From positions 1-34,316 of the forward strand of contig JBOFCW010000068.1 of assembly GCA_051646395.1 (NCBI GenBank): a DNA stretch of 34,316 nucleotides, given 5' to 3'. Positions 489 to 22,152 of this stretch are shown piece after piece. Made by a program: the position numbers and the translations under genes. This stretch comes from Bacteroidales bacterium (GTDB lineage Bacteria; Bacteroidota; Bacteroidia; Bacteroidales; JAUNSR01). Below the pieces are notes generated by a model, which saw only the letters and a program-made list of their open reading frames with translations, was not told the origin of the DNA and did not search any database. The stretch's first letter is position 1, and each line of letters opens with the position of its first letter.

Positions 489-3400
489 TTACACAACCTC
501 CCGCTCCCGATACTTCGAAGGCGAAAGCCCCGTATGCTGCTTGAACGCGGTGCTGAAGTAGCGCTGGTTGCTGTAGCCGCATAGTCCGGCGATTTCCTGG
601 ATCGGGAGATCGGACTGTTTGAGAAGTGCTCCGGCTTTTGCGATACGCAGTTTGTTGATATAATCGTTCACACTGGTGTCGGTTAGTTGCTTGAGCTTGT
701 TGTATAGTGTGGCCCGGCTCATTCCGATCTCGTCGGTGATGAATTTTACGTCGAGGTCTGAATTGGCGATATTCCTGTTGATGATATCGTTCAGACGGAT
801 GATAAACTGCTCGTCGGTATTTTTAATTTCGATATTTTCTAATTTGGCATGGGCTCCGTATCTTTTGTATCGGGCTTTCATGCTGTTTTTGTTTTTGGCC
901 AGGTTGATGACGCGTGTCTCGAGGATATCCATATCGAACGGTTTCGAAATGTAGATGTCGGCACCGGTCTTATAACTGGTCAGCATACTTTCGGAATCGG
1001 TTTTAGCCGTGAGCAGGACAAACGGGATGTGACAGATGTCGGGATTCTCTTTTACGGCTTTACAAAGCTGTAGCCCGTTCATGCCCGGCATCATGATGTC
1101 GGATATGATCACATCCGGTAGCTCCTGTTTGATCAGGTGTAACGCAGCCTCGCCATTGTCGGCTTCGTAGATGGCTTTGAACTTGTCGCACAACGATTCG
1201 CGGATGAAATTGCGCAGTTCGACCTCATCTTCAACGATCAGAATGGTGTTGTTCATGCTGATTTCTTCCCGGTCGGATTTCTGAAGATCGGCTTCTTTTT
1301 CGAATGCGTCGTTGAGGATCGCTTTTTTGTCGTTTGAATGAAGCTCCGGCGCCAGCGCGATAGGCAGATCGAAAAAGAATGTGGCTCCCGGACCTGACTC
1401 GTTGTTATAGGCTCCGATTTTGCCCTGATGCATTTCAATCAGGTTTTTCGCATATGACAATCCGATTCCGCTTCCTGCGCGGTCGTGGTTTTTACCCTGA
1501 TAAAAGCGGGTAAATAACTTTTCGATATCCGTATTCTTGAGACCGATCCCTTCGTCTTTTACCGCGATGCGGATGTAATCGCCCTCGATGGATGATGAAA
1601 TCATTACGGCTGTTTGCGGGTCGCTGAACTTTAGTGCGTTGACTAATAGGTTCGATAGTACGGTTTCGCAACGGTTGCTGTCGAATGTGAGCCGGTCGAT
1701 TTTGTCATCCAGACGAAAATCGATGTTTATGTTCTTTTCTTCGAATTCATAGGTGAAATCCTGTGCCACCTGCGTGATCCATTCGTTCAGTTTCCGGGTG
1801 TGGAGTTGTAACGGTTCGTCGGCAACTTCCATTTTCCGCAGATCCAATACCATGTTGATGATATTGCGCATCCGTTTGGCTTGTTTATAAATGCCGCTGA
1901 TTGGTTTTTCCATATCGGATGGAAGTGTTTTTTCGTCGAGCATCCTTTTCAGGGGTGCATAGATCAGGGTCAGCGGGGTACGTAGCTCGTGACTGATGTT
2001 GATCAGAAAACGTACTTTTTCTTCGTAAATTTTTTGTTCGTGTTCTTTCATCCGCCATTTCATCCGTATCTCTTTCCGACGTACGATTGCGAATGCGATC
2101 AGTATCATGAGCGCAAAAATGCACGAGAATAAGAATAGCAAGATCCATCTGCTTTTCCACCAGGGAGGAGAGATGATGATGCTCAGAATCTGTTTCGGTT
2201 CGCTCCAGTTGCCATCTGCCGTATTGCAGGCGACGCGGATATCGTATTTGCCGGGTGACAGAGAATGCAATTTAAGGGAGTTGTCATATGATTCTGAAGG
2301 CGCGGCGGCCAGGCCGCTGACCTCGTAGCGAAATATCTTGTTGCGGAAAATATCTTCGTCGGGAGCCATGCTTTTGACAATCAGGGTGGAGTAGTTCCAG
2401 GGAATACGAATCACGGGCTCCTCGGGTGCAATTTTTTCGTACATCGAGTTGCCGTTGAGTATAACATCTGTCAGATTCACGACCGGGCTTTCCGTTACGG
2501 CATGTAGCGGAATCTCTTTGATGCGGGCCAGTCCCATTACTCCGCCCATGTAAACATCGCCTGCTTCGGAGCAAAGTACCGGCTTGTTGAGGAACTCATT
2601 GGGATAAACTCCTTCTGATTCATCAAGGATAGAAAATCGATTTTCCAGGGGATGGTAGGCGAAAAGCATGCCCCGTGCTGCAATCCAGATGCGGTTGTTG
2701 AAGTCGCGGATCAGCGCGGATACCTCATGAAAGAGGTTTGTGTTGATTTTGGCGCTAATGCCGGTTTTCGGGTGAAAACTATACAACCCGCCGGATGTGC
2801 CGACCCAGAATATCCCGTTGTCGTAGGTGACGGCATTTATGATCCCTTGTTCGCGGGTGAAGGTAGCGATCGGCGAAATCGTATTTCCGTCATGATTTAA
2901 TACGAACAGGTTGCGCTGCCCGAACAGATATGACTGCCCTTCGATCAGGCAGATGTTTTGTAGTGATGAAGTGGAAATATAGCGTCGTGCCTTCAGTTTG
3001 GCAATCCGGAATCTTTGTTCTTTCGGGTGATAGGTATAAACATTGTCGGCCAGAAACAGAAACCTGTCGTCAGAGATGCGTGCCATGTTTACGGAGTTGC
3101 TCGAACGGCAAATCCGTTTATTGTCTGTTTCACTTAATAACAGGAAGGGAGTTGTCTTTCCCGTTTCTTTGTTGAACAGAAAGACCCCTTTGCTGAAAAA
3201 TGAAACCATCAGTTCGGTTTTGCTGTAATTGATGATGCTCGCTACTTTTTCTTTATAAGTAGAAGGGTAATGTAAAAACGTTTCGGTTGCGGGGTCGAAT
3301 CGGTTTATCCCTCCTCCATCAGTCCCGATCCAGATATGCTTGTTGTCTTCGCATACTGAAAGTATCGTTTTTTCACTCAATCCGTAAGGACTGTTCAAGG

Positions 3401-4412
3401 CTACGTCTTTATAGGTTTTTACAAAAACTTTCTTGATTCCGATCAGACCGCCGCGAATCGTTCCCGCCCACATGTTATTTTGCGGATCTTTGTAAAGTTT
3501 TGAAATGGCATTGACCGGAAAGGAATAGATATCGCCCGGAATCGGTTCGATTACTGAAAACGACTCTGATTTCGGATCAAGAATGCTGATACCGCCTCCG
3601 TCGGTAGCGAACCAGATTTCTCCGTCTTTTTCTTCGATGTCGAGAATGATATCGTTGCTTAAGCCGGAATTGGATGTATCGTATGTTTTGATCAGATTAC
3701 CGCCAGCATCATAACAAAATACGCCATTGCCATAGGGGGAAATCCATATTTGTTTTTGCGAGTCGACAAACAGCGCGATGATATTTCTGTCTGTATAGAA
3801 ATCTACAGGTTTCATCGTCTGTTCTTCCGGATAATAATACCACAAGCCGAACCAGCGACTGCCGATAAGCATGCGCCCTTCGTCCAGCGGATGGATGGAG
3901 TTGAAAAATACCGATGGGTTTTTTTCTATCCGGACAGGGAGTTGCCGGATGATGCGTGAAGCATAGTCGTAAAAAAACAGTCCCTCTTTTCCACAAAACA
4001 AGATACCCTCTTTTTGAAAATGAAAATCGCCGGCGAAAACTTTGTCTCCGTCTATATATAATGTTTCAAACGCATCTTTCGACCGGTTATAAAGAGCAAG
4101 CCCCTGGTTGGTCGAGATCCATAGATTTTGTCTTTCATCTTCGGTGATGAAGGTGATTCTGTTGCCCGGAAGCGAACCCGAATCACCAGGGTGGTGCATG
4201 AACGTTTTGAGTTCTTGTTGATCGTACCGGTTGAGTCCGGATTTCGTACCCAGCCAGATGTATCCCTGATGATCTTTTACGACACTTTGTACGGTCGATT
4301 GTGTAAGACCGTTTTCCAGGGAAATCTGCTTGAAGTAAAAATAATCAGAAGAAGACCCGCGCAGTGTGAAAGAAACGAGCAGTAAAACCAGGGTTAGAAG
4401 GTGTACCCGCAT
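489..4412 (-). CDS. Hybrid two-component system (HTCS) sensor kinase/response regulator of the PUL
   Basis: Signal peptide, repeated beta-propeller motifs (IWLGT..GL, IWIGTDGGG), Y_Y_Y-like region, TM helix after PPWWKS, HisKA (NISHELRTPLTLI), HATPase (DEGIG, GSGIGL), receiver (ILIVEDE, DIMMPGMNG) and AraC HTH (CGYSNQRYFSTAFK). ATG at 4412 is preferred to TTG at 4442. Confidence 0.95.
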   Translation of the reverse strand: MRVHLLTLVLLLVSFTLRGSSSDYFYFKQISLENGLTQSTVQSVVKDHQGYIWLGTKSGLNRYDQQELKTFMHHPGDSGSLPGNRITFITEDERQNLWISTNQGLALYNRSKDAFETLYIDGDKVFAGDFHFQKEGILFCGKEGLFFYDYASRIIRQLPVRIEKNPSVFFNSIHPLDEGRMLIGSRWFGLWYYYPEEQTMKPVDFYTDRNIIALFVDSQKQIWISPYGNGVFCYDAGGNLIKTYDTSNSGLSNDIILDIEEKDGEIWFATDGGGISILDPKSESFSVIEPIPGDIYSFPVNAISKLYKDPQNNMWAGTIRGGLIGIKKVFVKTYKDVALNSPYGLSEKTILSVCEDNKHIWIGTDGGGINRFDPATETFLHYPSTYKEKVASIINYSKTELMVSFFSKGVFLFNKETGKTTPFLLLSETDNKRICRSSNSVNMARISDDRFLFLADNVYTYHPKEQRFRIAKLKARRYISTSSLQNICLIEGQSYLFGQRNLFVLNHDGNTISPIATFTREQGIINAVTYDNGIFWVGTSGGLYSFHPKTGISAKINTNLFHEVSALIRDFNNRIWIAARGMLFAYHPLENRFSILDESEGVYPNEFLNKPVLCSEAGDVYMGGVMGLARIKEIPLHAVTESPVVNLTDVILNGNSMYEKIAPEEPVIRIPWNYSTLIVKSMAPDEDIFRNKIFRYEVSGLAAAPSESYDNSLKLHSLSPGKYDIRVACNTADGNWSEPKQILSIIISPPWWKSRWILLFLFSCIFALMILIAFAIVRRKEIRMKWRMKEHEQKIYEEKVRFLINISHELRTPLTLIYAPLKRMLDEKTLPSDMEKPISGIYKQAKRMRNIINMVLDLRKMEVADEPLQLHTRKLNEWITQVAQDFTYEFEEKNINIDFRLDDKIDRLTFDSNRCETVLSNLLVNALKFSDPQTAVMISSSIEGDYIRIAVKDEGIGLKNTDIEKLFTRFYQGKNHDRAGSGIGLSYAKNLIEMHQGKIGAYNNESGPGATFFFDLPIALAPELHSNDKKAILNDAFEKEADLQKSDREEISMNNTILIVEDEVELRNFIRESLCDKFKAIYEADNGEAALHLIKQELPDVIISDIMMPGMNGLQLCKAVKENPDICHIPFVLLTAKTDSESMLTSYKTGADIYISKPFDMDILETRVINLAKNKNSMKARYKRYGAHAKLENIEIKNTDEQFIIRLNDIINRNIANSDLDVKFITDEIGMSRATLYNKLKQLTDTSVNDYINKLRIAKAGALLKQSDLPIQEIAGLCGYSNQRYFSTAFKQHTGLSPSKYREREVV

Positions 4413-4466
4413 AGCTGTTAAAACATGTGATGATTGATTCAATTTTAAGATTTCTCTTTAAAAATT

Positions 4467-4474: not shown

Positions 4475-4546
4475 ATAGGAAGGGCCTCTTTTTGGTTATT
4501 CTGATAATCTTTTTTATGTAAAAATGGATGTTAACCCGGTTTGCAT

Positions 4547-4590
4547 GTTCGAAATCGTATCAAAATAGGTTCGAAATTGTCTGAAATATG
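4547..4590 (+). promoter_or_regulatory. Candidate HTCS (AraC-type) operator: direct repeat with 22-bp period
   Basis: GTTCGAAATCGT (4547-4558) and GTTCGAAATTGT (4569-4580) are 11/12 identical and lie in the divergent intergenic region. Confidence 0.6.
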
Positions 4591-4663
4591 CATCCTGTTA
4601 GCTGTTTGGACAATTACGAAAGTATTACAAACGGAAAAGAACAAGGGTCTGGATCGGGAGCTC

Positions 4664-4671
4664 TATTTTTG
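4664..4671 (+). promoter_or_regulatory. Candidate -7 box for the main PUL operon
   Basis: TATTTTTG matches TAnnTTTG. There is no clear -33 TTTG at the expected spacing. A small hairpin follows (ACCGG 4686-4690 / CCGGT 4697-4701). Confidence 0.4.
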
Positions 4672-4727
4672 AACCAAACCAGATGACCGGGTATTTCCGG
4701 TACATGTCAAACACAAAAAAAGTTATC

Positions 4728-5678
4728 ATGAAAAGAAATCTACTATTTGTAACGATGGCGACTTGCATGAGTCTTTCTACCGTTAATGCGGAAAATGTAA
4801 CGCCTTCAAATTTCTTGTTTAAGAATCTTCCGATCGGGAAATTCCAGATTACGAATGCGGGTTCAGGTGCGAATCCGAATGTTGATTTAGATACCCCCGG
4901 AGATGTAGTAATAGCTTGCGGCCCGGGTGCTGCCGATAAGTTAATTCCAGTTGTGAAAAATTGTGCTTGCATCGTCGGTAGCAAATGGGGAAATCTTTTG
5001 ATGGTCAAAGGACAGGATTCATCGGTAGAAGAAGGTATCGCCACCCCTGGGTCATTGAATACAGGTTGGTGGAGCATTAATTTTATCGGACCGAAAAGTA
5101 TTGCGTCGCAAAAGTATCGTGGAACGGTTCAGATAAAAGTTGTGGCCGATGTTGCTGACGAAAGTAAACTGATCGATGTAAATTATGTTACAGGAGGTGG
5201 AAATAATCAGTCACTACCCGGACAAGCCAGGGATGTTCTTGCTTTTGGTGACACAGGGTGGTATCAAGCTCAGCTTGAGGGAACAGTAGGTACTACAGAT
5301 CCTGCGCGTTTTCGTGTCCAGATACCGGGAGGAGCGATGGATAAATCGGCTCTCTATATATATGAAGTGCGTTTTGAGAAAAATCCGACAGAACCAATAT
5401 ATAACTCACCGAATGATGGTACACCCGGATCTGATGCTCCGATTGGTGCTGTAGAGACTTCTTTGAATGACTTTGCGAACCACAAAGGTGCTTTCGTAAC
5501 CTGGGAAAAAGGAATGATCTATATTAATGAAGCCGCCGGCAAATCAGTTGTCGTTTATACGGTTTCAGGACAGAAAGTGAAAGAATTCACGGCTGGTTCG
5601 GATTTCGAATCATTGACGTTGGCTTCAGGTATTTACCTGGTTTGTGTTGACGGACAAACGACGAAAGTGGCATTGTAA
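4728..5678 (+). CDS. Secreted protein of unknown function with a T9SS-type C-terminal sorting domain
   Basis: Signal peptide MKRNLLFVTMATCMSLSTVNA, beta-rich core, Pro/Thr/Gly linker, and a C-terminus (VVVYTVSGQKV...LASGIYLVCVDGQTTKVAL) typical of T9SS CTDs. Start moved from 4683 to ATG 4728. Confidence 0.8.
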   Translation: MKRNLLFVTMATCMSLSTVNAENVTPSNFLFKNLPIGKFQITNAGSGANPNVDLDTPGDVVIACGPGAADKLIPVVKNCACIVGSKWGNLLMVKGQDSSVEEGIATPGSLNTGWWSINFIGPKSIASQKYRGTVQIKVVADVADESKLIDVNYVTGGGNNQSLPGQARDVLAFGDTGWYQAQLEGTVGTTDPARFRVQIPGGAMDKSALYIYEVRFEKNPTEPIYNSPNDGTPGSDAPIGAVETSLNDFANHKGAFVTWEKGMIYINEAAGKSVVVYTVSGQKVKEFTAGSDFESLTLASGIYLVCVDGQTTKVAL

Positions 5679-5690
5679 ATACATATAAAG

Positions 5691-5709
5691 GGGGGATGAA
5701 AATTCCCCC
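5691..5709 (+). other. Intra-operon stem-loop without U-tract
   Basis: GGGGGA-TGAAAAT-TCCCCC, 12 nt after the stop of the first operon gene. Confidence 0.5.
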
Positions 5710-5772
5710 GAAATAATTCATCACTAACAGAAAAACACACCCGATACGAAAGGGGAATTAAATCATATCCTT

Positions 5773-8331
5773 ATGAAGATCAGAAATCTACTTTTACTGC
5801 TTTGTCTGAGTTCGGCAAGCGTGAATACACTAAAAGCACAAACCACGAATTATGCCTTGCGTCTGAACGGACAGCAGGCCGTTACTTGCGGTTCTATCGA
5901 TGAGTTGGCCGGAAGTACAAGTTATTCGGTACAGTTTATGGTTGCCCCCGACAACTGGTCTTCTTCTTCGTATATTTATCGTGCAGGATCAGGCTCGGAT
6001 GAATTTTCAGCCAGACTGTCTTCTGTCAACGGTGAAATCCTTTTCAAATCCGGAAATAAAGAGTTCGCTCTGGGAAATATCAAAGTGAACGGGTGGAGTC
6101 AGGTGACTCTGATCGTATCGCCGGAAATGATTCAGGCCTGGGTAAATGGTGTTAAATCTGAAATTGCGACTTCCGATTTTGCCGCTCCGGCTCAGTTAGG
6201 CAATTTTCAGATCGGTTCGGGTTTTACCGGACGGGTGGATGAATTCCGATTGTGGAATGCAGCCCTGAATACATCGGATACCGACTATCTTTTGTTACAA
6301 AATACGGTGAATAAGTTTCATCCGCAGTGGGAAAACCTGGTGGTATATTATAAATTCGATCAGGACCAGTGCGCAGACAACATCGTCGATTATAAGTTTA
6401 CACACCATGGATCGATGGGTTCGGCTATTTTACGCGAACCGGTTCGTGACAACGATTATTTCCGTTACCGTGTGGTAAGCGGATATTCCGATTTCAACCG
6501 TCATTGCGACCGTGTTCAAATCGATCGGGATATGCACTTGCTGACCAATGACCTGATCATTCTGAATGCGAAGGTGGATGGTTATACGGGCGAAATATCG
6601 ATGAATGCCCCGGATAACGGCGTATTCACAGGTGGATATAATCACCTGGATGCTTTCGATGGACGCAAGGGGGTGATGAACTTCGACGGAACGGGAGTTA
6701 TGAACCTGGGTGATCATGTTGTCATACCCGGTAGTCCGGCTGGTAACGCTTTGACTTTCGAAGGATGGTTCAATATCTCCGAATGGAAAGAGGGTGCTTA
6801 TCTGTTTAAAAAACAGGAGAGTGAATTCAAACGGATGAATATTCGTTTGGGTAATGCCGAAAAAAAAGAACTGATTATCGAAGCGGGAGGCTGGACGGCT
6901 GTTTTTGCAGGCGGAATGGCTAACATAAATAAATGGGATCATTTGGCCGTAGTGGTAAATCCGGGTTCAACGCGTAGCCCATTTAGCTTATATGTTAATA
7001 ATGTAGCTTTGCCGAAGCCGGTTGTGACTAAAGTTGACGGTTCTAATACATTCGAAATCATGAACATCAATGCCGAAGGAACGATCGGGGAATCATTCAA
7101 CGGAAAGATCGATAACATCATGATGTGGCGACAGGCGAAATCCAGCTTTGCGGCAACGATGAACGAAACGGCCAATGAGTTGAAATTCCCGGGCGGAGGT
7201 GACGGTTCTATTTACCTCGACGCTTATTTACGCTTCGATGATCCGGGCGATCCGGGATTGAATCTGAAGGGATGGAAGGGAATGCTGAAACAGATCAAAG
7301 ATCAATATGCGGGGCATCGTGGTTATATGATCCGTCTGGGGCTGATTACTTCTACGTCTTATCCCGGTGGTGGTAAAGTTTGGCCCGATTATATCGGAAA
7401 ACCCGAATGGCGCGCGAATCTGGCCAAAGGGGTAGAGAAACTGATTCCATATTGTGACGGAATCGATGTCGATTTCGAGTGGTTAGACAATAACGTGAAC
7501 AATCCGAAATGGGTTTCGTATGGCGAAATGGTGAAAAGCCTGCGTAAGGTTGTTCCGAACGATAAGGTTTTAAGTGTTTCTTTGCATCCTGTTTCATATA
7601 CGATGCCGACAAATCCGGAAGTGCTTGATGCGATCGACTTCATAACATATCAAAACTATGGACCCCGACCTACGAGCCTTTATTATGATGCTTATCAGAA
7701 ATTCTTCACTCAGGCATTGAATTACGGTATTCCTGCTGAAAAAATTCGCTTGTCGATGGCTACTACGATTGTACGGGCTGACAACAGTGGAAAAAACGTG
7801 AGCGGGTATAAGAACCTGGATTTTACGAACATCACTGCTGATACGAATACAGCACAGTATGCGGGTTATGAATATACTTTCAACGGCGTAAACGAAGTGA
7901 AAAAGAAAATGCGCCTGTTGGTAGAGAAAAATAGCGGTGGTTGTATGTACTTCGACATGGGGAATGACCTGTCTGTACAGAAAGAGCTTTCTTTGATCCG
8001 GGCTCTGAATACGGTGATCGCCTCGAATGTGGACACGTTGGTTACGAAAGTTCCACCCGTTACCGGTATTCAGGAAACGACCACTGATCGTAAAGAGAAA
8101 ATCACGGTATTTCCGAACCCAACGAAAGATTTCATCACCGTAAAAGGTAATATCGGCGGGGTTGCTCCCGTTAAATATGAGATTTGTTCGATGAAAGGGG
8201 AGTTGGTTGCGAAAGCGATTTTGCCTGATTCAATGATTATTTCTCTTGAAAATCTTCCTTCGGGGACTTATTTTTTACGCTTATTCAATTCAGAATCATC
8301 ACATACGGAGAAAATCCAAATCAAAAACTAA
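5773..8331 (+). CDS. GH18 family glycoside hydrolase with two LamG/concanavalin-like domains and a T9SS type A CTD
   Basis: Catalytic DxxDxDxE motif (DGIDVDFE, Glu569 at 7477). LamG signatures FTGRVDEFRLW and WDHLAVV...FNGKIDNIMMW. CTD VFPNPTKDFITV...LPSGTYFLRL...KIQIKN. Signal peptide present. Confidence 0.88.
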   Translation: MKIRNLLLLLCLSSASVNTLKAQTTNYALRLNGQQAVTCGSIDELAGSTSYSVQFMVAPDNWSSSSYIYRAGSGSDEFSARLSSVNGEILFKSGNKEFALGNIKVNGWSQVTLIVSPEMIQAWVNGVKSEIATSDFAAPAQLGNFQIGSGFTGRVDEFRLWNAALNTSDTDYLLLQNTVNKFHPQWENLVVYYKFDQDQCADNIVDYKFTHHGSMGSAILREPVRDNDYFRYRVVSGYSDFNRHCDRVQIDRDMHLLTNDLIILNAKVDGYTGEISMNAPDNGVFTGGYNHLDAFDGRKGVMNFDGTGVMNLGDHVVIPGSPAGNALTFEGWFNISEWKEGAYLFKKQESEFKRMNIRLGNAEKKELIIEAGGWTAVFAGGMANINKWDHLAVVVNPGSTRSPFSLYVNNVALPKPVVTKVDGSNTFEIMNINAEGTIGESFNGKIDNIMMWRQAKSSFAATMNETANELKFPGGGDGSIYLDAYLRFDDPGDPGLNLKGWKGMLKQIKDQYAGHRGYMIRLGLITSTSYPGGGKVWPDYIGKPEWRANLAKGVEKLIPYCDGIDVDFEWLDNNVNNPKWVSYGEMVKSLRKVVPNDKVLSVSLHPVSYTMPTNPEVLDAIDFITYQNYGPRPTSLYYDAYQKFFTQALNYGIPAEKIRLSMATTIVRADNSGKNVSGYKNLDFTNITADTNTAQYAGYEYTFNGVNEVKKKMRLLVEKNSGGCMYFDMGNDLSVQKELSLIRALNTVIASNVDTLVTKVPPVTGIQETTTDRKEKITVFPNPTKDFITVKGNIGGVAPVKYEICSMKGELVAKAILPDSMIISLENLPSGTYFLRLFNSESSHTEKIQIKN

Positions 8332-8366
8332 CCTGAACAAACACGAATTACTTAAATATCAAATCT

Positions 8367-11300
8367 ATGAAAGGTAACATAAAATCATCCGTTGCTTTTC
8401 TTGTTTTCCTCTTCTGTCCGTTTATCGCGGTAATGGCACAGATCATGGTGAAAGGAAAAGTCACAGATAAAACAGGAGAATGCATTATCGGAGCGAATAT
8501 CCTGGTAAAAGGAACAACAAACGGTACGACAACCGATATCGACGGTGATTATTCGATCAATGTAGCCGATGATAAAGCCGTTTTGGTTTTTTCCTACATC
8601 GGTACGCAGAACCAGGAGAAGACAGTAGGTAAAAACCGTGTCATCAATGTAACACTGGATGAGAACACTGAGGTGCTCGACGAAGTAGTCGTAGTCGGTT
8701 ACGGTACGGTACGAAAAGGCGACCTGACGGGAGCTATCTCTTCAATCAAACCGGATGAAAACGAAGCTTCGAAAGTAGTGTCTGTCGATAACCTTTTGCA
8801 GGGGAAAATCGCGGGTGTTTCTGTAGGAAGTGCGGTAGCAGCTCCCGGAGCAGCATCATCTGTAACGATTCGTGGTGCGAATTCGTTGCGCGGTGATAAC
8901 CAGCCGTTGTATGTGATCGACAATATCCCGCAGGCATCTACAGGAGAGTTTGCAGCAAGTGCTTTCGGTAGCGGTGATTTCCAGATTGCTCAGAATCCGC
9001 TGACCAGCTTGAATCCGCAGGATATCGAGGATATCCAGGTGTTGAAAGATGCTTCGGCAACGGCAATCTATGGTTCGCGCGGTGCGAACGGGGTAATCAT
9101 CATTACGACTAAAAAAGGAAAGAGCGGCAAAGCGAAGGTGAATGTGACAGCCAACTTTACGGTTGCTACTCCTACCAATATGAAAGATATGCTAAACCTG
9201 AATGAGTACGCTGCTTATCGTAACGAACAGGCTGGAAATGCCAAACAGTATTATCCGGTCGACGGGGAAATGCGTTACATCTTTTCCGGTTCGACTTATG
9301 ATCCGAACAATCCGGCTACTTACCGTATTCTTTCTTACAGAAACTGGCAGAGAGAGATCTACCGCAATGCTTTCTCGCAGAATTATGCGGCAACAGTAAG
9401 TGGTGGTACGGATAATACGACCTACTACATCTCGGCTTCATTCAAAGATATCAATGGTTTGGTAATGAATACGGGATTGAAACAAGGCGATTTGCGTGCG
9501 AATATTTCAACGAATATTTCGAAAAACGTAACCTTGAAAATGGCTTTGAACGGGTCGATCAAACAGAATGATATGATGTCGGGTGGCGACACGAAAGGGG
9601 GAGCGACCGGTTCGGTTACCCGTACGGCAATCGACTCTGCTCCTTATCTGATTCCGGATGACGAGCCGAACTTGTCGGCAGAACAGCGCACAACCGTATT
9701 TAGCTGGATCAACGACTACGATGATATCACAAAAGAAAAAACATTCCGCGGATCGATCGATCTTAACTGGAATATCAACAAAAACTTTTCTTACAATGCA
9801 CGTGTAGGGGGAGACTTGTTTATTCAGGACCGTGCAAGATGGTTCGGATTGCAGCTTTTCCGTGGTCAGAATGACAATGGTTCATTGGGTCTGACTAATC
9901 TGAATAAAGATCATTATACGGTTGAAAACCTGATCAACTACAAAGCGAAGATCGATCGTATCGTAAATATCAATGCAACAGTAGGGGTCACTTACGACGA
10001 TTATGCATTCGTAAATAAGATTACCAGTGCAAGAAACTTCGAGAACCACTCTTTCCGTACGAATGGTTTGCATATGGCGGGTGTAATCAATCAGGAACAA
10101 CCGATTCAGAAAGATTACCAATTGCTTTCTTACCTGGGACGTTTGAACCTCTCTTTTGCGGAGGGCAGATACTTGGCAACAGCGACATTCCGTGCCGACG
10201 GAACCAGTAAATTCGTTAAATCGAATCGTTGGGCTTACTTCCCTTCGGTAGCATTAGCCTGGCGTTTGGAGCAGGAGAGCTTCCTTCGTGACCAGGAGTG
10301 GCTGGATCAGCTGAAGTTGCGCCTGGGTTACGGTCAGACAGGTAACCAGTCGATCGATCCTTATAACAGCTTCTACGATTACAAGAAAAAAATCGACTAT
10401 GCTATCGCCAATGGTAATAAAGAACTGGCTCTGGCGGTAAGTAACCTGCAGAATGCTTATCTGAAATGGGAAACGACAACGTCTTATAGCGCGGGTATTG
10501 ATTTCGGATTCTGGAACAGCCGCTTGTCGGGATCGCTCGACTGGTATTACAAACAGACCAACGATTTGCTGATCGAACGTGCCGTATCGTTTACAACCGG
10601 TTTCAACAGTATCCTGATGAATCAGGGCGCTCTGAGCAACAACGGATTCGAGGTTTCGCTTAACGCTGATATCTTCCGTACGAAAGATTTTACATGGTCA
10701 GTATCGGGTAACATCGGTTTCAACGATTCTAAAATCAAAAAATTAGGTCTTCCTGCTTCGAATTTCGGAAACCAGGAGTATGTGGCTTACCTGGGGAATT
10801 CGATCGGCGACCATTTCGGAGTTGCGAATATCTTTATCGAGGGGCAGGCTCCGGGTCTGTTCTGGGGATACAAAACAGATGGCATCATCAATGAGGGAGA
10901 CGCCGTATTGCCTAACAAAGTTTCAACCAACACGAATCCGGGAAATATCAAATACGTCGACTCGAACGGCGACGGGCAGATCACGGAAGATGATAAGGTG
11001 ATCCTGGGTAATCCGAATCCGGATTTCACATATGGATTCCAGACTACAGTCAAATACAAAGACCTGACTCTGACAGCGGCCTTCAACGGGGTATACGGAA
11101 ATCAGATCCTGAATACGAACATCCGTTATGAAGAAATGCCATCACGCCAGACAGCAAATATGACGAAACGAGCACTAGAGGGTGCCTGGAGAGAAGGAAT
11201 GACCAACGCGCAATATCCATCGGTAAACAGTTCGATTGCCTCTCAGGCAGTTCTTGACCGGTATATCGAAGATGGTAGTTTCTTGCGTTGTTCGGACATT

Positions 11301-11519
11301 ACATTGAATTATTCGTTGCCTAAAAACCTGATTCAAAAAATCAGTTTCCAGTCTGTCAATGTATTCGCATCTGTTAAGAACGCATTCGTAGTGACAAACT
11401 ATTCAGGATATGATCCGGAGGTGAACACATTTGCTTTCGACGGTCTGAGACGCGGAATCGACATGAACTCATTCCCACAGGCGAGATCATTTATCTTTGG
11501 TTTAAATGTAACTTTCTAA
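8367..11519 (+). CDS. susC: SusC/RagA family TonB-dependent outer membrane transporter
   Basis: N-terminal extension (VKGKVTD...IIGANILVKGT), LDEVVVVGYG, plug motif LKDASATAIYGSRGANGVIIITTK, and terminal GLNVTF. Confidence 0.97.
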   Translation: MKGNIKSSVAFLVFLFCPFIAVMAQIMVKGKVTDKTGECIIGANILVKGTTNGTTTDIDGDYSINVADDKAVLVFSYIGTQNQEKTVGKNRVINVTLDENTEVLDEVVVVGYGTVRKGDLTGAISSIKPDENEASKVVSVDNLLQGKIAGVSVGSAVAAPGAASSVTIRGANSLRGDNQPLYVIDNIPQASTGEFAASAFGSGDFQIAQNPLTSLNPQDIEDIQVLKDASATAIYGSRGANGVIIITTKKGKSGKAKVNVTANFTVATPTNMKDMLNLNEYAAYRNEQAGNAKQYYPVDGEMRYIFSGSTYDPNNPATYRILSYRNWQREIYRNAFSQNYAATVSGGTDNTTYYISASFKDINGLVMNTGLKQGDLRANISTNISKNVTLKMALNGSIKQNDMMSGGDTKGGATGSVTRTAIDSAPYLIPDDEPNLSAEQRTTVFSWINDYDDITKEKTFRGSIDLNWNINKNFSYNARVGGDLFIQDRARWFGLQLFRGQNDNGSLGLTNLNKDHYTVENLINYKAKIDRIVNINATVGVTYDDYAFVNKITSARNFENHSFRTNGLHMAGVINQEQPIQKDYQLLSYLGRLNLSFAEGRYLATATFRADGTSKFVKSNRWAYFPSVALAWRLEQESFLRDQEWLDQLKLRLGYGQTGNQSIDPYNSFYDYKKKIDYAIANGNKELALAVSNLQNAYLKWETTTSYSAGIDFGFWNSRLSGSLDWYYKQTNDLLIERAVSFTTGFNSILMNQGALSNNGFEVSLNADIFRTKDFTWSVSGNIGFNDSKIKKLGLPASNFGNQEYVAYLGNSIGDHFGVANIFIEGQAPGLFWGYKTDGIINEGDAVLPNKVSTNTNPGNIKYVDSNGDGQITEDDKVILGNPNPDFTYGFQTTVKYKDLTLTAAFNGVYGNQILNTNIRYEEMPSRQTANMTKRALEGAWREGMTNAQYPSVNSSIASQAVLDRYIEDGSFLRCSDITLNYSLPKNLIQKISFQSVNVFASVKNAFVVTNYSGYDPEVNTFAFDGLRRGIDMNSFPQARSFIFGLNVTF

Positions 11520-11532: not shown

Positions 11533-13233
11533 ATGAGAATAACTAAATATTTGTGCTTCTCGTTAGCACTAGCATCACTTTCATCATGCTTGGATGAAAA
11601 CCCACTTTACTCACTCAACAGTGAGAGTACATTCGAAGATGTACGTACGGCAGAATTGGCCATGAAAGGTTGTTACGGTTACATGACTACCTACGATGCT
11701 TTCGGGCAGGCCGGGCAGGAGCTCCTTTCGGGAGCATCCGGCCTGGGTTGGGCACAAACAAGTGCCAGCGATCAGGACCGTTTCGCTTCAATGGATGCTT
11801 CTTCGGCTTGTGTGATTACGAAGATGTTCTGGAGCGGGATGTATAAAACAATCAGTGAGTGTTGCTTTTTTATCCATAACATGGAAAAATCGCCCCTTGC
11901 CGAGGCGGACAAGGCTTATCTCGTCGCTCAGGCAAAATTCCTTCGCGGACTTGCATACTACAACCTGGTGACCACTTACGGAGGTGTTCCTTTGCGTGTG
12001 GATGCTCCTACTTCATTGACGCTTTCTATCCCGAGAGCTTCTGAAGAGGAAGTTTACGCCCAGATCGAGAAAGACTGGATGGAATCCGCACAAGGATTGA
12101 AAGAGAAGGATCAGAAAGGACTGGCTTCACGTCCGGCAGCCTATGCTTATCTGGCAAAACTTTACTGGACGTTGGGATCGAAAGAGAACAATGCATCTTC
12201 ACCATACTGGAAGAAAGCACAAGCTTACTGTGATTCGGTTTATCAAAAAGGTGGATTCGCTCTTGAACGTAAGTTCGAAAATGTATTTGTAAACCATTAC
12301 CAGGCGGATGAATCTATTTTTCAGTTGAATTTTTCAACATCTTCTTCTACAACAGGAAACCGGGGGAACTGGATTTTCGCACCACAGAATTCAACGGAAA
12401 AAGGAATCTCATGGGGACGTATCCGGGCAACGAAAGCGTTTCATGATTTGTTCAAGGGGACTTATCCAACCGACCCGCGTTATGATGCGACTTTCCTTAG
12501 CGAATGGGTGAATCGCGGTAACGGGGAAAAACAATATGCTTATCCTACGATTTCATACAAAGAAGGAAGAAAAACAATAGTAGAGACTCTTGATTACTCA
12601 AAACTGGAGGATCCTACGAATCCAAAAATCGAGGAGTTGTCTACTATGCAAAGAAATCGTTTATGTGGACCGAAAGGAGAAAATAACGGTTGGGCTTATT
12701 TCAAGAAAAGCTATGACTACGTTTCAGAAGCCCAGAACTGCAATAAAAACCTGATTTTGTACCGCTATGCCGACTTCCTGTTGTTGATGGCCGATGTGGA
12801 GAATGAACTGGGAAATACATCTAAAGCGATCGGACTGGTTAATCAGGTATTGTCGAGAGCCCGTAATTCGGTGACTCCGGCGGCGGCAGATCCTGCCGAT
12901 TGGGATATGGGGCTATCACAGGATCAGGTAAGAACCAAAATCTATTACGAACGATTATTCGAGCTTGCCGGTGAGCCGACGATGTATATGGATGTGCGCA
13001 GACGCGGCGGAGATTATATCAAAAGTATCGCTGAGCTGAATAACCGTCATCATATCACGTATTCTCTGGCCACATCCGATACCGTGGGTATCCATAAATT
13101 CAGAGACCGTATTTTTAACAATGGAAATATTTCCGCGGATTTCCTTAAAAAGAATCTTGTTCTACCAATCCCTCAGGAAGAAATCAATACCAATGAATTG
13201 ATTTCGGTTAAAGACCAGAATTTCGGTTATTAA
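11533..13233 (+). CDS. susD: SusD/RagB family glycan-binding lipoprotein
   Basis: Lipobox LSS-C followed by LDE. Motifs AKFLRGLAYYNLV..YGGVPL, RYADFLLLMAD, ERLFELAGE and LPIPQEEI. Lies directly after susC. Confidence 0.95.
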   Translation: MRITKYLCFSLALASLSSCLDENPLYSLNSESTFEDVRTAELAMKGCYGYMTTYDAFGQAGQELLSGASGLGWAQTSASDQDRFASMDASSACVITKMFWSGMYKTISECCFFIHNMEKSPLAEADKAYLVAQAKFLRGLAYYNLVTTYGGVPLRVDAPTSLTLSIPRASEEEVYAQIEKDWMESAQGLKEKDQKGLASRPAAYAYLAKLYWTLGSKENNASSPYWKKAQAYCDSVYQKGGFALERKFENVFVNHYQADESIFQLNFSTSSSTTGNRGNWIFAPQNSTEKGISWGRIRATKAFHDLFKGTYPTDPRYDATFLSEWVNRGNGEKQYAYPTISYKEGRKTIVETLDYSKLEDPTNPKIEELSTMQRNRLCGPKGENNGWAYFKKSYDYVSEAQNCNKNLILYRYADFLLLMADVENELGNTSKAIGLVNQVLSRARNSVTPAAADPADWDMGLSQDQVRTKIYYERLFELAGEPTMYMDVRRRGGDYIKSIAELNNRHHITYSLATSDTVGIHKFRDRIFNNGNISADFLKKNLVLPIPQEEINTNELISVKDQNFGY

Positions 13234-13243: not shown

Positions 13244-13283
13244 AATCCGGGTAAGTTGTTTTATGACAGAATTTACCCGGATT
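13244..13283 (+). other. Strong stem-loop after susD (partial terminator or mRNA stabiliser)
   Basis: AATCCGGGTAA (13244-13254) / TTACCCGGATT (13273-13283), extendable inward, with only a short T tail. Confidence 0.65.
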
Positions 13284-13325
13284 TCTATCACATCATGTTT
13301 GTTTAAACGTATAAGCTGTTTTCGT

Positions 13326-14870
13326 ATGCATTCCTATTCTACTCTTTCCGTTGGTTCCTTATTGACATTGTCCTTGTTGAGCGGCTGTCAGTCACAATCG
13401 AAAGAACAAACCAAACCTTTGAATATCCTTTTTATCATGACCGATGACCATACTTCTCAGATGATGAGTTGTTATGACAAAAGGCATGTGGAAACGCCCA
13501 ATCTCGATCGTATCGCTGAGAACGGAGTACGGTTTACCCGCAGTTTTGTAGCGAATTCGATCAGTGGTCCCAGCCGGGCCTGTATGTTGACAGGAAAACA
13601 TAGTCATGCCAACGGATTTATCGATAATACGACATGTGTATTCGACAGCTCACAACAGACTTTTCCTAAACTTTTACGCAAAGCAGGGTATCAGACCGCG
13701 GTAGTCGGAAAATGGCACCTGGAAAGTTTACCCTCCGGATTCGATTACTGGACCGTGGTTCCCGGCCAGGGAGACTACTACAATCCGGATCTGATCACGC
13801 AGGATAACGATACCGTACGGCATACCGGATATCTGACGAATATCGTTACAGATTTAAGTCTCGACTGGCTACAGACCAAAAGAGATCCGGCTAAACCATT
13901 CTGTTTATTGGTTCATCACAAGGCGATTCACCGCAACTGGATGGCTGATACGACTTATCTGAATCTATATGAAGACAAAGTCTTCGACCTGCCGGCTAAC
14001 TTTTATGATGATTATGCCAACCGTCCGGCAGCTGCAGCTCAGGAAATGTCTATTCTGAACGATATGGATGTGATTTATGACCTGAAGATGTATCATCCGG
14101 ATAAGCAAAGTCGCTGGAAAGTTTGGTTCGAGTCTTTTTACGGACGAATGAATCCGGCCGAAAAAGCTGCATGGGATCGCTTTTACGATCCGATCATAGC
14201 AGACTTTTACAAAAGGGATCTGCAGGGAAAAGAACTTGCCGAATGGAAATACCAACGCTATATGCGTGATTATTGCAAAACGCTGAAATCGCTTGATGAG
14301 AACGTTGGCCGGGTATTGGATTATCTTGAGCAAAATGACCTGATGGAGAATACATTGGTCGTTTATACATCCGATCAGGGATTCTATATGGGAGAGCATG
14401 GATGGTTCGACAAACGATTCATGTACGAGCAGTCAATGCATACTCCGCTGATCATGCATCTTCCGAAAGGATTCGATCGCAAAGGCGACATAACCGATCT
14501 TGTTCAGAACATCGATTATGCTCCCACTTTTCTGGAATTGGCTGGTGTCGAAATTCCGGAAGATATACAAGGCGTTTCCTTGTTGCCGCTTTTGAAAGAT
14601 GAAAAACCGCAGGAGTGGAGAAAAGGGCTTTATTATCATTTTTATGAATATCCGGCCGAACATATGGTAAAACGGCATTACGGAATCCGTACGGATCACT
14701 ACAAACTTATCCATTTCTACAATGACATCGACCAGTGGGAATTGTATGACCTGCAAGCCGATCCGGATGAGATGAACAATCTTTATGGCGATCCGCAATA
14801 TGATGCGGTGGTAGCCGGCCTGAAAAAAGAATTAAAGAATTTACAACAGGAGTATAAAGCTCCTGTTTAA
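13326..14870 (+). CDS. S1 family Ser-type sulfatase lipoprotein, resembling GlcNAc-6-sulfatases (S1_11-like)
   Basis: NILFIMTDDH, S-G-P-S-R formylglycine motif, GKWHL, SDQGFYMGEHGWFDKRFMYE. Lipobox LSG-C at residue 21 when started at ATG 13326; ATG 13263 lies inside the hairpin. The subfamily is recalled similarity, not searched. Confidence 0.88.
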   Translation: MHSYSTLSVGSLLTLSLLSGCQSQSKEQTKPLNILFIMTDDHTSQMMSCYDKRHVETPNLDRIAENGVRFTRSFVANSISGPSRACMLTGKHSHANGFIDNTTCVFDSSQQTFPKLLRKAGYQTAVVGKWHLESLPSGFDYWTVVPGQGDYYNPDLITQDNDTVRHTGYLTNIVTDLSLDWLQTKRDPAKPFCLLVHHKAIHRNWMADTTYLNLYEDKVFDLPANFYDDYANRPAAAAQEMSILNDMDVIYDLKMYHPDKQSRWKVWFESFYGRMNPAEKAAWDRFYDPIIADFYKRDLQGKELAEWKYQRYMRDYCKTLKSLDENVGRVLDYLEQNDLMENTLVVYTSDQGFYMGEHGWFDKRFMYEQSMHTPLIMHLPKGFDRKGDITDLVQNIDYAPTFLELAGVEIPEDIQGVSLLPLLKDEKPQEWRKGLYYHFYEYPAEHMVKRHYGIRTDHYKLIHFYNDIDQWELYDLQADPDEMNNLYGDPQYDAVVAGLKKELKNLQQEYKAPV

Positions 14871-14886: not shown

Positions 14887-20269
<5,383 letters not shown>

Positions 20270-20279: not shown

Positions 20280-22151
20280 ATGAGGCGATTCATCACAACT
20301 TACACGTTGGCTACACTGCTTTTATGCGGTTGTAGCCAACAGAAAGAAACTTATTATACCAAACACCTCGTTTTTCCGGCGGATGCTACGAGCGAACAAA
20401 AGGTAGATATGGCCTCACGGCTGGTTCCTTCTGCGCAACAACTGGCATGGCAGCAACTCGAACTGACCGCATTTCTTCACTTCGGGATAAATACCTTCAC
20501 CGGCAGAGAATGGGGAAATGGACAAGAAGATCCGGCTTTGTTTGATCCAACGGCCCTGGATGCGGGGCAATGGGTGAAATCATTGAAAGATGCCGGATTC
20601 AAAATGGCGATTCTTACGGCGAAACACCACGACGGATTTTGTTTGTGGCCAACAGCGACAACGCATCATTCGGTAGCTTCGTCTCCCTGGAAAAACGGAG
20701 CCGGAGATGTGGTGAAAGAGTTGCGGGATGCATGTGATAAATACGATATGAAATTCGGGGTTTATCTTTCTCCATGGGACCGGAATGCTTCTTGTTATGG
20801 AGATTCTCCCGAATACAACCGATTCTTTATCGAGCAGCTCACCGAACTACTTACGAATTACGGCGAAATACATGAAGTGTGGTTCGACGGTGCTTGCGGA
20901 GAAGGCCCGAATGGAAAGAAACAGGAATATGACTGGGATTCGTTTTACCAAACCATCACACGCCTGCAACCCAATGCGGTGATGGCGATCATGGGTGATG
21001 ATGTACGCTGGGTAGGAAATGAAAAAGGACTGGGGCGCCCGACGGAGTGGAGTGCTACTGCACTGACCCCCGGTATTTACCGTCGTTCGGCAGAGCAAAA
21101 CAAATCCCTCGGACTGTTTTCCAAATCGCCCGATTTGGGTGGACGGGAAATCATCCAAAAGGCATCCGAGTTATTCTGGTATCCTTCTGAGGTGGATGTT
21201 TCAATTCGTCCGGGATGGTTCTACCATGAAAAGGAAGATGACAAAGTGAAGTCATTGCCTCACCTGGTTGATATTTATTTTCAGTCTGTAGGCTATAATT
21301 CGGTTTTGCTTTTGAATATACCACCTGATAAACGCGGATTGATTCATGAAAATGATGTGAAGCGGCTGAAAGAGATGTCGGTTTATCTGAATGAAACATT
21401 CTCGAAAAACCATCTGAAGCAAAATCAGGAATGGAAGGCACAACCGGGAAGTTCGAAAGAGTTCGCTCTTGTTCCTGATTCCCGTATCAATACCATTTTG
21501 CTGCAGGAAGATATCCGGAAAGGACAGCGGGTAGAACGCTTCGTTATCGAATCGTTCGAAAACGGAAGCTGGAGAACACTCGAAGAGGGGACTACGATCG
21601 GTTATAAACGCCTGATCCGTTTTCCTGAAACAACAACGGATAAGATCCGGCTGACGATTGCGGAATCCCGCAACGCCGCAAATATATCGAATGTAGCGGC
21701 TTATTATGCTCGTCCGCTGCAAGATGCGACAGCCGCAGAAAAGCTAAGTGATCTTGCAGTTGAAACCTGGATGCCGGTCGGTGTTTCGGGCGACGCGAAA
21801 AAGGCGATCGATGCCAATGCTTCTACGGCATGGAAGGCGAATGCGCTGACTGCTTTTGTCGTGGATATGGGTAAACCGGAGCCGGTCAAAGGATTTGTTT
21901 ATGCTCCTGTTCAGCAGGAAGACAAAACAGGAACCATCTTCAAGTATAATTTTTACGTAAGTGAGAATGGGAAAGAATGGACGAAATGTGCTTGTTCGGG
22001 TGAATTCAGTAACATCATGCATAATCCGATTCCGCAATATGTACGTTTCGAACAACCTTATTCAGCCCGGTATTTCAAGCTTGAACCAGTGCGGGAAATC
22101 GAGGGCAGAGAATCGACATCGATAGGTGAAATCGGTATTCTTACAAAATAA
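20280..22151 (+). CDS. GH29 alpha-L-fucosidase lipoprotein with C-terminal F5/8-type domains
   Basis: FLHFGINTF, LTAKHHDGFCLW, YLSPWD, EVWFDGA (nucleophile), DVSIRPGWFYH, and lipobox LCG-C. Confidence 0.93.
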   Translation: MRRFITTYTLATLLLCGCSQQKETYYTKHLVFPADATSEQKVDMASRLVPSAQQLAWQQLELTAFLHFGINTFTGREWGNGQEDPALFDPTALDAGQWVKSLKDAGFKMAILTAKHHDGFCLWPTATTHHSVASSPWKNGAGDVVKELRDACDKYDMKFGVYLSPWDRNASCYGDSPEYNRFFIEQLTELLTNYGEIHEVWFDGACGEGPNGKKQEYDWDSFYQTITRLQPNAVMAIMGDDVRWVGNEKGLGRPTEWSATALTPGIYRRSAEQNKSLGLFSKSPDLGGREIIQKASELFWYPSEVDVSIRPGWFYHEKEDDKVKSLPHLVDIYFQSVGYNSVLLLNIPPDKRGLIHENDVKRLKEMSVYLNETFSKNHLKQNQEWKAQPGSSKEFALVPDSRINTILLQEDIRKGQRVERFVIESFENGSWRTLEEGTTIGYKRLIRFPETTTDKIRLTIAESRNAANISNVAAYYARPLQDATAAEKLSDLAVETWMPVGVSGDAKKAIDANASTAWKANALTAFVVDMGKPEPVKGFVYAPVQQEDKTGTIFKYNFYVSENGKEWTKCACSGEFSNIMHNPIPQYVRFEQPYSARYFKLEPVREIEGRESTSIGEIGILTK

Positions 22152-22152
22152 T

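Follow-up and report, generated by a model that had tools for sequence, protein, structure and literature searches.

The stretch of DNA considered here (the window; contig JBOFCW010000068.1, C184) is an entire contig of 34,316 b from a metagenome-assembled genome (MAG) of a Bacteroidales bacterium (2.56 Mb in 358 contigs, 73% complete, 1.7% contamination). It carries a polysaccharide utilization locus (PUL), in which an adjacent SusC/SusD pair is accompanied by carbohydrate-active enzymes and a regulator. The operon opens with two genes, designated gene 1 and gene 2, whose products have cleavable leaders and C-terminal domains (CTDs) resembling those of type IX secretion system (T9SS) cargo; gene 2 is a predicted enzyme of glycoside hydrolase (GH) family 18. 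The locus probably serves the utilization of sulfated poly-N-acetyllactosamine (poly-LacNAc; keratan sulfate, sulfated mucin O-glycans), with an outer-surface front end delivered by the T9SS.

The genes of the locus are given below. SPI denotes a leader of the signal peptidase I type, an arrow marks a cleavage site, and identities refer to the comparison loci L101 and L112 (G153), in which the related GH18 enzyme is a lipoprotein.

489..4442, minus strand: hybrid two-component system (HTCS) regulator, divergent from the operon (Pfam Reg_prop, Y_Y_Y, HisKA, HATPase_c, Response_reg, HTH_AraC); 43% identity to the L101 HTCS.
4728..5678, plus strand: gene 1, 316 aa; SPI leader 1-21, sandwich resembling a carbohydrate-binding module (CBM; beta-sandwich, ~22-234), low-confidence linker 235-253, DUF6383/type-A T9SS CTD 251-316 (nt 5478-5675).
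5773..8331, plus strand: gene 2, 852 aa; SPI leader 1-22, LamG 1 ~30-170 (nt 5860-6282), LamG 2 314-457 (nt 6712-7143), GH18 ~480-760 (nt 7210-8052), type-A T9SS CTD 779-851 (nt 8107-8325).
8367..11519, plus strand: SusC-like TonB-dependent transporter (TIGR04056, 888 bits; Plug; CarbopepD_reg_2).
11533..13233, plus strand: SusD-like lipoprotein, lipobox ...LSSC↓LDENP (SusD_RagB, SusD-like_3).
13263..14870, plus strand: sulfatase 1, lipobox LLSGC↓QSQ (Sulfatase, SGSH_C); 70% identity to the sulfatase 3' of the DUF5006 gene in L101.
14887..17199, plus strand: GH20 beta-hexosaminidase with an F5/8 type C domain, lipobox LSGC↓KKD (Pfam); 57% identity to the L101 GH20.
17192..20269, plus strand: GH2 LacZ-type beta-galactosidase (NF052611, 943 bits); 66% identity to the L112 GH2.
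20280..22151, plus strand: GH29 alpha-L-fucosidase with an F5/8 type C domain, lipobox LLCGC↓SQQ (Pfam); 62% identity to the L112 GH29.
22126..23598, plus strand: sulfatase 2, SPI leader (Pfam); 43% identity to an L112 sulfatase.
23948..25480, minus strand (opposite to the operon): sulfatase 3, SPI leader (Pfam); 71.5% identity to the L112 sulfatase adjoining GH29.
25779..28292, plus strand: GH2 GalB-like beta-galactosidase (NF041463, 888 bits; cut-off 900).

Gene 1, gene 2, SusC, SusD, the first sulfatase, GH20, the LacZ-type GH2, GH29 and sulfatase 2 form a co-directional string. Lipoboxes are present in SusD, sulfatase 1, GH20 and GH29, and the remaining locus enzymes have SPI leaders. No gene lies between the end of SusD (13233) and the start of sulfatase 1 (13263).

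Leaders were judged by eye, together with their conservation in homologues. The open reading frame (ORF) of gene 1 extends over 4683-5678, and translation is taken to start at the ATG at 4728 (MKRNLLF...), which is common to all 6 relatives. Its leader ends in ...STVNA↓ENV with a conserved A↓E junction. Processing of gene 1 as a lipoprotein via Cys13 was considered and ruled out: this residue is missing in 3 of the 6 relatives and is thus not a conserved lipobox. The leader of gene 2, MKIRNLLLLLCLSSASVNTLKA↓QTT, ends in LKA↓QTT, and the A↓Q junction is found in nearly all homologues; Cys11 of this leader, preceded by LLL, does not form a lipobox.

The C-terminus of gene 1 matches DUF6383 (PF19910) with 43.3 bits (cut-off 23.7; residues 251-314), the sole match to this model above the cut-off in the source genome, and TIGR04183 with 25.2 bits (cut-off 23; residues 265-312 of 316). 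In the papers found, DUF6383 is described only as resembling a T9SS targeting domain. The C-terminus of gene 2 matches Por_Secre_tail (PF18962) with 42.8 bits (cut-off 27; residues 779-850) and TIGR04183 with 41.5 bits (cut-off 23), the latter up to residue 851 of 852. A preliminary description of the window had placed the two genes at the same coordinates and attributed to them cleavable leaders and T9SS-like CTDs in place of lipoboxes. The leaders as read agree with this, and both CTDs pass the curated models (TIGR04183 for the two proteins, DUF6383 for gene 1 and PF18962 for gene 2).

The secretion machinery which that description connected with such cargo (porK/L/M/N, SprA/Sov, PorU, PorV) was also found, along with porP. 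A single operon on C97 comprises porP-porK-porL-porM-porN, each gene above its curated cut-off, and PorU and PorV are adjacent on C200, likewise above their cut-offs. TIGR04183 has 35 matches in the source genome at E ≤ 1e-3, 32 of them above the cut-off. In the control genome, that of B. thetaiotaomicron, none of the T9SS models was matched at its cut-off. Chance is not an issue, since both tails lie above curated cut-offs and the gene pair is kept in dozens of other genomes. Judged by these sequence features, gene 1 and gene 2 are very probably both T9SS cargo.

Two full-length SprA/Sov genes, both above the cut-off of the model, are present in the source genome (C99:15867-23075, 2808 bits; C188:891-8123, 2786 bits). 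With contamination of the MAG at 1.7%, the pair may stem from a true duplication, from a mixture of strains or from an error in binning. A general coupling of T9SS and PULs in the source genome was considered and rejected, since only 3 of the 32 CTDs above the cut-off lie within 6 kb of a SusC gene; these are the two of the window and that of a gene 2 paralogue on C210. The paralogue (C210:1-2840; profile positions 273-848; CTD 48.4 bits) has a SusC gene immediately after it, so the source genome has at least two such front ends.

The part of gene 2 between leader and CTD contains two stretches matching Pfam Laminin_G_3 and a GH18 domain with the catalytic motif intact (DxDxE; DGIDVDFEW, i.e. 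D562-G-I-D565-V-D567-F-E569-W). Residues D567, E569 and W570 are invariant in 86/86 aligned members of the gene 2 family. The best match of the family profile (A1) in the PDB is a GH18 chain, 6xyz_A (E 2.7e-12); the homologous enzyme of L101 scores 92.3 bits in Pfam GH18. From these features, gene 2 is predicted to encode a GH18 enzyme whose catalytic motif is intact and which combines an SPI leader with two LamG modules and a type-A CTD. A word-index search with gene 2 at E ≤ 0.001 returned 43 proteins including its own, nearly all of ~850 aa, the closest named relative being from Barnesiella viscericola (42% identity).

The possible substrate of this enzyme could be deduced from the comparison with a characterized locus. 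The gene order in L101 and L112 is HTCS, two small genes, GH18 lipoprotein, SusC, SusD, DUF5006/DUF5014 protein, sulfatase, GH20, GH2, GH29 and sulfatase, in exact agreement with the numbering order bt1624-bt1632 of B. thetaiotaomicron. In the accessible part of PMC13042051 (bioRxiv 2026), bt1623-36 is described as a PUL for colonic mucin O-glycans and keratan sulfate. As stated in the same portion of the paper, BT1632 belongs to GH18 but clusters apart from chitinases and N-glycan endo-beta-N-acetylglucosaminidases (ENGases), and acts as a cell-surface endo-beta-N-acetylglucosaminidase which produces sulfated oligosaccharides from keratan sulfate and colonic mucin O-glycans; enzymes of this type are reported there to cut sulfated poly-LacNAc as well. 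BT1624 is given as a 6S-Gal sulfatase, BT1625 as a fucosidase and BT1626 as a beta-1,4-galactosidase, and BT1627 and BT1629 are named (PMC13042051, accessible part). The T9SS has no mention in that part of the text.

The window shares with bt1623-36 the order of families (GH18, SusC, SusD, sulfatase, GH20, GH2, GH29, sulfatase), an HTCS regulator and a homologous GH18 enzyme with the same catalytic motif. Gene 2 is 30.6% identical to the L101 GH18 lipoprotein over 497 aa (E 2e-54), and profile A1 recognizes the lipoprotein-type GH18 with ~333 bits. Where its counterpart has a lipobox, the GH18 protein of the window has an SPI leader, a T9SS CTD and one more LamG at the N-terminus; a DUF5006/DUF5014 gene after SusD is missing, gene 1 being located upstream instead, and the SusC/D pairs are not orthologous. 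The exo-enzymes are 57-71% identical between the loci, compared with 30.6% for gene 2 and 25.5% for SusC, which indicates that the degradative back end has been retained and the outer-membrane front end replaced. The suggestion of the preliminary description that an endo-glycanase releases sulfated oligosaccharides fits the activity reported for the lipoprotein homologue type in the accessible text of PMC13042051. By this homology, gene 2 is likely to be an endo-beta-N-acetylglucosaminidase acting on sulfated LacNAc-type chains.

Alternatively, gene 2 could be a classical GH18 enzyme, i.e. a chitinase or an ENGase acting on the chitobiose core of complex N-glycans, which may be sulfated, and the locus could be directed at N-glycans. 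The keratan sulfate of the cornea is itself N-linked, the nearest solved sequences carry chitinase annotations, and GH20, GH2, GH29 and sulfatases would equally suit sulfated complex N-glycans. However, the exo-enzymes show the above identity to the keratan/O-glycan locus, and a Pfam scan of the locus revealed no GH92, GH130 or other mannose-core enzymes. The closest characterized type, moreover, cuts inside LacNAc chains and stands apart from both chitinases and ENGases (PMC13042051, accessible part). A classical GH18 activity is therefore improbable, and cleavage inside sulfated LacNAc chains is preferred.

The distribution of the secretion format was followed across genomes. In a one-genome-per-species scan, the best 80 of 159 stretches matching gene 2 were kept, which make up 78 loci. 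The string of gene 1, gene 2, SusC, SusD, sulfatase, GH20 and GH2 is widespread among them: it is present in a Bacteroidales MAG (gene 2 69% identical), in Bacteroides salyersiae and B. nordii (~51%), and in Barnesiella, Coprobacter, Muribaculaceae, Paludibacter and Marinilabiliaceae. The B. salyersiae locus (L008) is an orthologue of the window locus, with gene 2 51% identical. The B. nordii orthologue of gene 2 (L010) is represented by two overlapping ORFs (479 + 394 aa; 1515-4053), and SusD is split there as well (7288-8993); these splits are frameshifts or sequencing errors of the draft.

Among 79 gene 2 relatives longer than 700 aa, the tail exceeds the Por_Secre_tail cut-off in 48, matches below it at E ≤ 0.01 in 20 and has no match in 11. 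The last set consists of five CTD-less proteins (744-756 aa), two Akkermansiaceae proteins (1230 aa) and four full-length proteins with divergent tails. The CTD-less forms retain an SPI leader and the LamG-LamG-GH18 arrangement; they occur in L014, L016 and L018 (Rikenellaceae MAGs), L019/L111 and L054:4917-7187. Some of their loci have no adjacent SusC, and two of these genes stand beside a DUF5006 gene.

An order-wide sample of 301 genomes, in which profile A1 matched at E ≤ 1e-60 in three including the source genome, was too sparse for a contingency table, and a sample of the genus of B. salyersiae (Bacteroides) was used instead, together with carriers derived from the loci. The related genomes are not independent, so the counts are given without a statistical test. 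Among 151 Bacteroides genomes, GldM is above the cut-off in 42. Matches to the gene 2 profile reaching the CTD are found in 9/151 genomes, all GldM-positive. Shorter matches (profile positions 258-744, ORFs of ~555-595 aa) are found in 7/151, all GldM-negative, and an eighth match of the short type is an 801-aa lipoprotein in a GldM-positive genome. A further 22 carriers of the CTD type were found through the loci, three of which also belong to the 151-genome sample; GldM is present in all. Including the source genome, carriers of the CTD type are thus GldM-positive in 29/29 distinct genomes.

Lipoprotein-type loci were obtained from five of the seven GldM-negative genomes (L101, L104-L107), and two near copies of L101 (L102, L103) come from two other GldM-negative genomes. 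In 7/7 of these loci the GH18 protein begins with ...LFGMLTAC↓KDTKW..., a lipobox, and has one LamG and no CTD. A lipobox form without a CTD in Bacteroides lacking the T9SS, which the preliminary description had put up for checking, was thus observed.

The CTDs of gene 1 and gene 2 could in principle be relics, with both proteins remaining in the periplasm. This would be in line with the existence of the CTD-less SPI forms (744-756 aa) of the same enzyme, including those in loci without an adjacent SusC. However, both CTDs exceed curated cut-offs, the tail is kept in 68/79 gene 2 relatives at E ≤ 0.01 (48 above the cut-off), and CTD-type genes are confined to GldM-positive genomes (29/29 tested), so that loss of function of the CTDs is very improbable and export of both proteins is preferred. 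In the three Rikenellaceae MAGs with CTD-less forms, whose completeness is not known, GldM was not found in two, and the third contains only an atypical 459-aa form. Shorter GldM-like ORFs (442-462 aa), matching only the two ends of the model without positions ~257-321, are also present in the Bacteroides sample (G130:C1:3274184-3275497, G126, G089, G137, G053, G093, G031).

A FastTree tree was built from the shared LamG2-GH18 core (86 rows); partial ORFs, ORFs longer than 1000 aa (L010, L060, L069, L076, L079, L080), the near-duplicates L102 and L103, and L111 were omitted. Six lipoprotein forms constitute one clade (local support 99) beside the CTD form of Labilibacter. Gene 2 groups with L007 (support 96), and this pair is joined by B. 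salyersiae and by the CTD-less forms of Rikenellaceae (support 100). The tree contains few format switches, with at least four label changes. The direction of these switches is not given by the tree because of its midpoint root and several long branches.

Among the 120 relatives of the lipoprotein-type GH18 listed out of 195, proteins P0132-P0156 (34-42% identity, 847-951 aa) carry a Por_Secre_tail, and two of them are named as originating from MAGs of Flavobacteriales and Cytophagales. In this GH18 subfamily, the CTD format therefore extends outside Bacteroidales. In the Bacteroides-genus loci L085-L099, a SusC 56-61% identical to that of the window (>1190 bits) is followed by SusD, sulfatase, GH20 and GH2, and neither GH18 nor gene 1 was found upstream, whether the genome is GldM-positive or GldM-negative. 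The transporter and the back end also occur without a neighbouring endo-enzyme.

Gene 1 accompanies the CTD form of the enzyme. Its profile (A2) was built from seven close sequences. A gene 1 relative (A2, E ≤ 1e-3) is located within 3 kb upstream on the same strand at 58 of the 69 CTD-type GH18 genes with at least 1200 b of upstream sequence, and at 52 of these 58 genes the match includes the N-domain. The corresponding counts are 0/6 for lipoprotein-type genes and 1/6 for CTD-less SPI forms. The DUF5006 protein occurs in 7/7 lipoprotein-type loci and in two loci of Rikenellaceae whose enzyme is CTD-less; it is missing wherever a CTD-type gene is present. The two proteins, gene 1 and DUF5006, are thus mutually exclusive, which is the main reason for supposing that gene 1 fills the place of the binder.

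The N-domain of gene 1 has no Pfam or NCBIfam match, including CBM families and those of surface glycan-binding proteins (SGBPs). The AlphaFold (AF2) model (pLDDT 74.8) consists of a beta-sandwich (22-234), a disordered linker and a separate C-terminal domain of seven strands. In a Foldseek search with this model, the best matches are CBM4, CBM16 and CBM22, with TM values of 0.5-0.64 when normalized to the target. The nearest clusters in a language-model atlas carry CBM27, CBM_4_9 and SGBP_B_XBD (scores 0.90-0.94), which can be taken as leads only. Aromatic residues such as W114, W115, W178 and Y130 are invariant in the family. This family is rare: a scan of 1.84 billion representatives at E ≤ 1e-3 yielded 16 clusters, 15 of them of 306-353 aa; a word-index search returned six relatives.

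The preliminary description had called gene 1 a binder. The CBM4/16/22-like model and the language-model leads are in agreement with this, the model being of medium confidence. On the basis of the predicted fold, gene 1 is a plausible glycan binder, with the evidence evenly balanced. Instead, gene 1 could assist gene 2, whether as a spacer, as an anchor or as a partner required for stability or export, or it could be an unrelated co-transcribed surface protein. No CBM or SGBP family is matched in sequence, beta-sandwich folds are common, the structural matches are weak over the whole query, and the 58/69 pairing with gene 2 would suit a protein-protein role equally. The best fold matches and language-model neighbours are, on the other hand, nearly all carbohydrate-binding modules, the mutual exclusion with the DUF5006 protein suggests the same niche, and the family has invariant aromatics (W114, W115, W178, Y130). 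A role other than binding is accordingly the less likely option, though a considerable one.

As a candidate binder, gene 1 resembles SGBPs and CBM4/16/22/27 modules, to which its predicted beta-sandwich is closest, and it is encoded beside SusC/D. It falls outside the SGBP class as defined (a lipoprotein beside SusD): it has an SPI leader and no conserved lipobox, belongs to no CBM or SGBP sequence family, and is positioned upstream of GH18 and SusC rather than after SusD, with anchoring or export presumably achieved via the DUF6383-type CTD. Its working may be similar to that of SGBPs.

Gene 1 and gene 2 are separated by 94 b, and this gap contains a G+C-rich hairpin (5691-5709; GGGGGAT...ATTCCCCC) without a T-run on the plus strand. 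This hairpin could determine the level of gene 1 relative to the genes that follow. Scans for promoters and terminators over 4300-8500 returned 8 promoter-like sites against 8.4 expected and were uninformative.

Taken together, the proposed operation of the locus would be as follows. The gene 1 and gene 2 products would pass the inner membrane through Sec and, once in the periplasm, would fold; their CTDs would then direct them through SprA/Sov, with processing by PorU/PorV. Both proteins would then be attached to the cell surface or to vesicles, or be released. Outside the cell, gene 2 would cut beta-GlcNAc linkages inside sulfated poly-LacNAc, as reported for the lipoprotein homologue type, and gene 1 would keep the polymer or its fragments close to the transporter. 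Sulfated oligosaccharides could be taken in by SusC/D and degraded completely in the periplasm by sulfatases, fucosidase, galactosidases and hexosaminidase, one of the breakdown products being sensed by the HTCS. In Bacteroides without the T9SS, the same job would be performed by the lipobox GH18 protein (one LamG, no CTD) and the DUF5006/DUF5014 protein encoded after SusD.

With the same components, the enzyme, and perhaps gene 1 too, could be released into the medium or on vesicles as a shared 'public good', as is reported of ChiA, the type-A CTD chitinase of Flavobacterium johnsoniae. Type-A CTD cargo is either anchored or released according to the accessible part of 10.1101/2022.07.15.500217, and the sequence holds nothing that would separate the two fates. 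The attachment-complex parts PorU and PorV are, however, encoded in the source genome, and in the same part of that preprint the T9SS PUL proteins of B. salyersiae are vesicle-associated and not free in the supernatant, and free activity was not detected. Such sharing is unlikely, and a front end retained near the transporter is preferred.

Several points weigh against the proposed function and route. That the gene 1 and gene 2 products are exported and reach the surface is a prediction from sequence, and the T9SS genes are on contigs other than that of the window, in a MAG which is 73% complete. The TIGR04183 score of gene 1 (25.2 bits) is barely above the cut-off of 23, and the CTDs of its relatives appear divergent: among 42 found by phmmer, 11 pass the DUF6383 cut-off, 14 do not reach it, and the other 17 have no match to either CTD model. 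Confidence in the structural model of gene 1 is medium, and the Foldseek TM values are 0.3-0.36 when normalized to the query. Gene 2 scores 29.3 bits against Pfam Glyco_hydro_18 (PF00704), for which the gathering score is 29.6, and is only ~30% identical to the characterized type. The SusC identity of 25.5% to the lipoprotein-type locus means that the imported oligosaccharide could differ. Since the loci were picked by likeness to gene 2, the CTD type is over-represented among them. L101 is linked to the published bt locus by gene order. According to the accessible part of PMC13042051, close paralogues of the BT1632 type differ in specificity, and a mutant without four endo-enzymes including BT1632 grows normally on keratan sulfate; the endo step may thus be dispensable.

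For chitin and cellulose, examples of PUL enzymes exported by the T9SS are known. ChiA of Flavobacterium johnsoniae, reportedly a chitinase acting on an insoluble polymer and released in soluble form, is the product of a chitin utilization locus which, like the window, encodes a GH18 enzyme with a T9SS CTD in a SusC/D locus. Unlike ChiA, gene 2 is a member of a LamG-GH18 subfamily tied to sulfated host glycans.

A closer parallel is the mannan PUL52 of B. salyersiae, where endo- and exo-enzymes of GH76 and GH38 have T9SS signals, as do two glycan-binding proteins (10.1101/2022.07.15.500217, accessible part). Both are SusC/D PULs of gut Bacteroidales in which enzymes and binding proteins have T9SS CTDs replacing lipoboxes (the binding role of gene 1 being a prediction), and it is the same species that holds the orthologue of the window locus (L008). 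The fungal alpha-mannan substrate and the enzyme families of PUL52 differ from those of the window, and its binders, as far as described in the accessible text, are large multi-domain Big_2 proteins of 138-240 kDa, gene 1 being a single-module protein of 316 aa.

The preliminary description had proposed a hybrid system, in which a T9SS-exported binder and endo-glycanase release oligosaccharides for import by SusC/D. The CTDs, the machinery and the type of enzyme speak for such a system; the points concerning the binder, the novelty and the insoluble substrates fall short. To call the system undescribed is too strong, since T9SS-exported PUL enzymes and binders of B. salyersiae are already in print in the 2022 mannan preprint (10.1101/2022.07.15.500217, accessible part). 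The statement that T9SS-exported PUL enzymes are known mainly for insoluble substrates is likewise outdated, the substrate of PUL52 being soluble yeast mannan according to the same part of that source. The endo-activity of this GH18 branch is already reported (2026) for the lipoprotein form, of which the window locus is the secretion-route variant. A literature search, with preprint supplements outside its range, found no account of a keratan/O-glycan PUL in T9SS format, of the family of gene 1 or of the exchange between gene 1 and DUF5006.

It can be tentatively proposed that gene 1 and gene 2 constitute a portable T9SS front-end cassette, replacing a surface lipoprotein enzyme and an SGBP, and that gene 1 founds a new family of small glycan binders anchored by a DUF6383-type CTD. 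For this keratan/O-glycan GH18 subfamily, the T9SS format could then be the usual one throughout Bacteroidales, Marinilabiliales and further groups, with the B. thetaiotaomicron lipoprotein format derived along with T9SS loss.

Work on the attack of gut Bacteroidota on sulfated mucin and keratan rests on B. thetaiotaomicron, in which all surface components are lipoproteins. Among the sampled relatives, selected by gene 2, most members of the GH18 subfamily would be T9SS cargo paired with an uncharacterized small protein, and the export format switches en bloc with the presence of the T9SS. This provides a natural experiment on why T9SS anchoring is used over lipoproteins, possible reasons being protein size, vesicle loading, and sharing versus selfish use. 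The gene 1 family is a candidate for a new binder family, and T9SS-positive gut taxa (Barnesiellaceae, Muribaculaceae, some Bacteroides) are flagged as probable degraders of keratan and mucin O-glycans.

The gene 2 family was found in 0/2 genomes of the same genus (99% and 95% complete), a hint of a variable or acquired locus. The locus end (28526-30446) contains a 100-aa ORF, judged by eye to be similar to a transposase C-terminus, followed by tRNA-Ser, tRNA-Asp, tRNA-Leu and tRNA-Gly; the 29-30 kb stretch of the window has 34% G+C. The longest ORFs of the LacZ-type GH2 (TTG start, 17192) and of sulfatase 2 (GTG, 22126) overlap the preceding genes, and the in-frame ATGs at 17216 and 22153, respectively, which give normal signal peptides, are the likelier starts.

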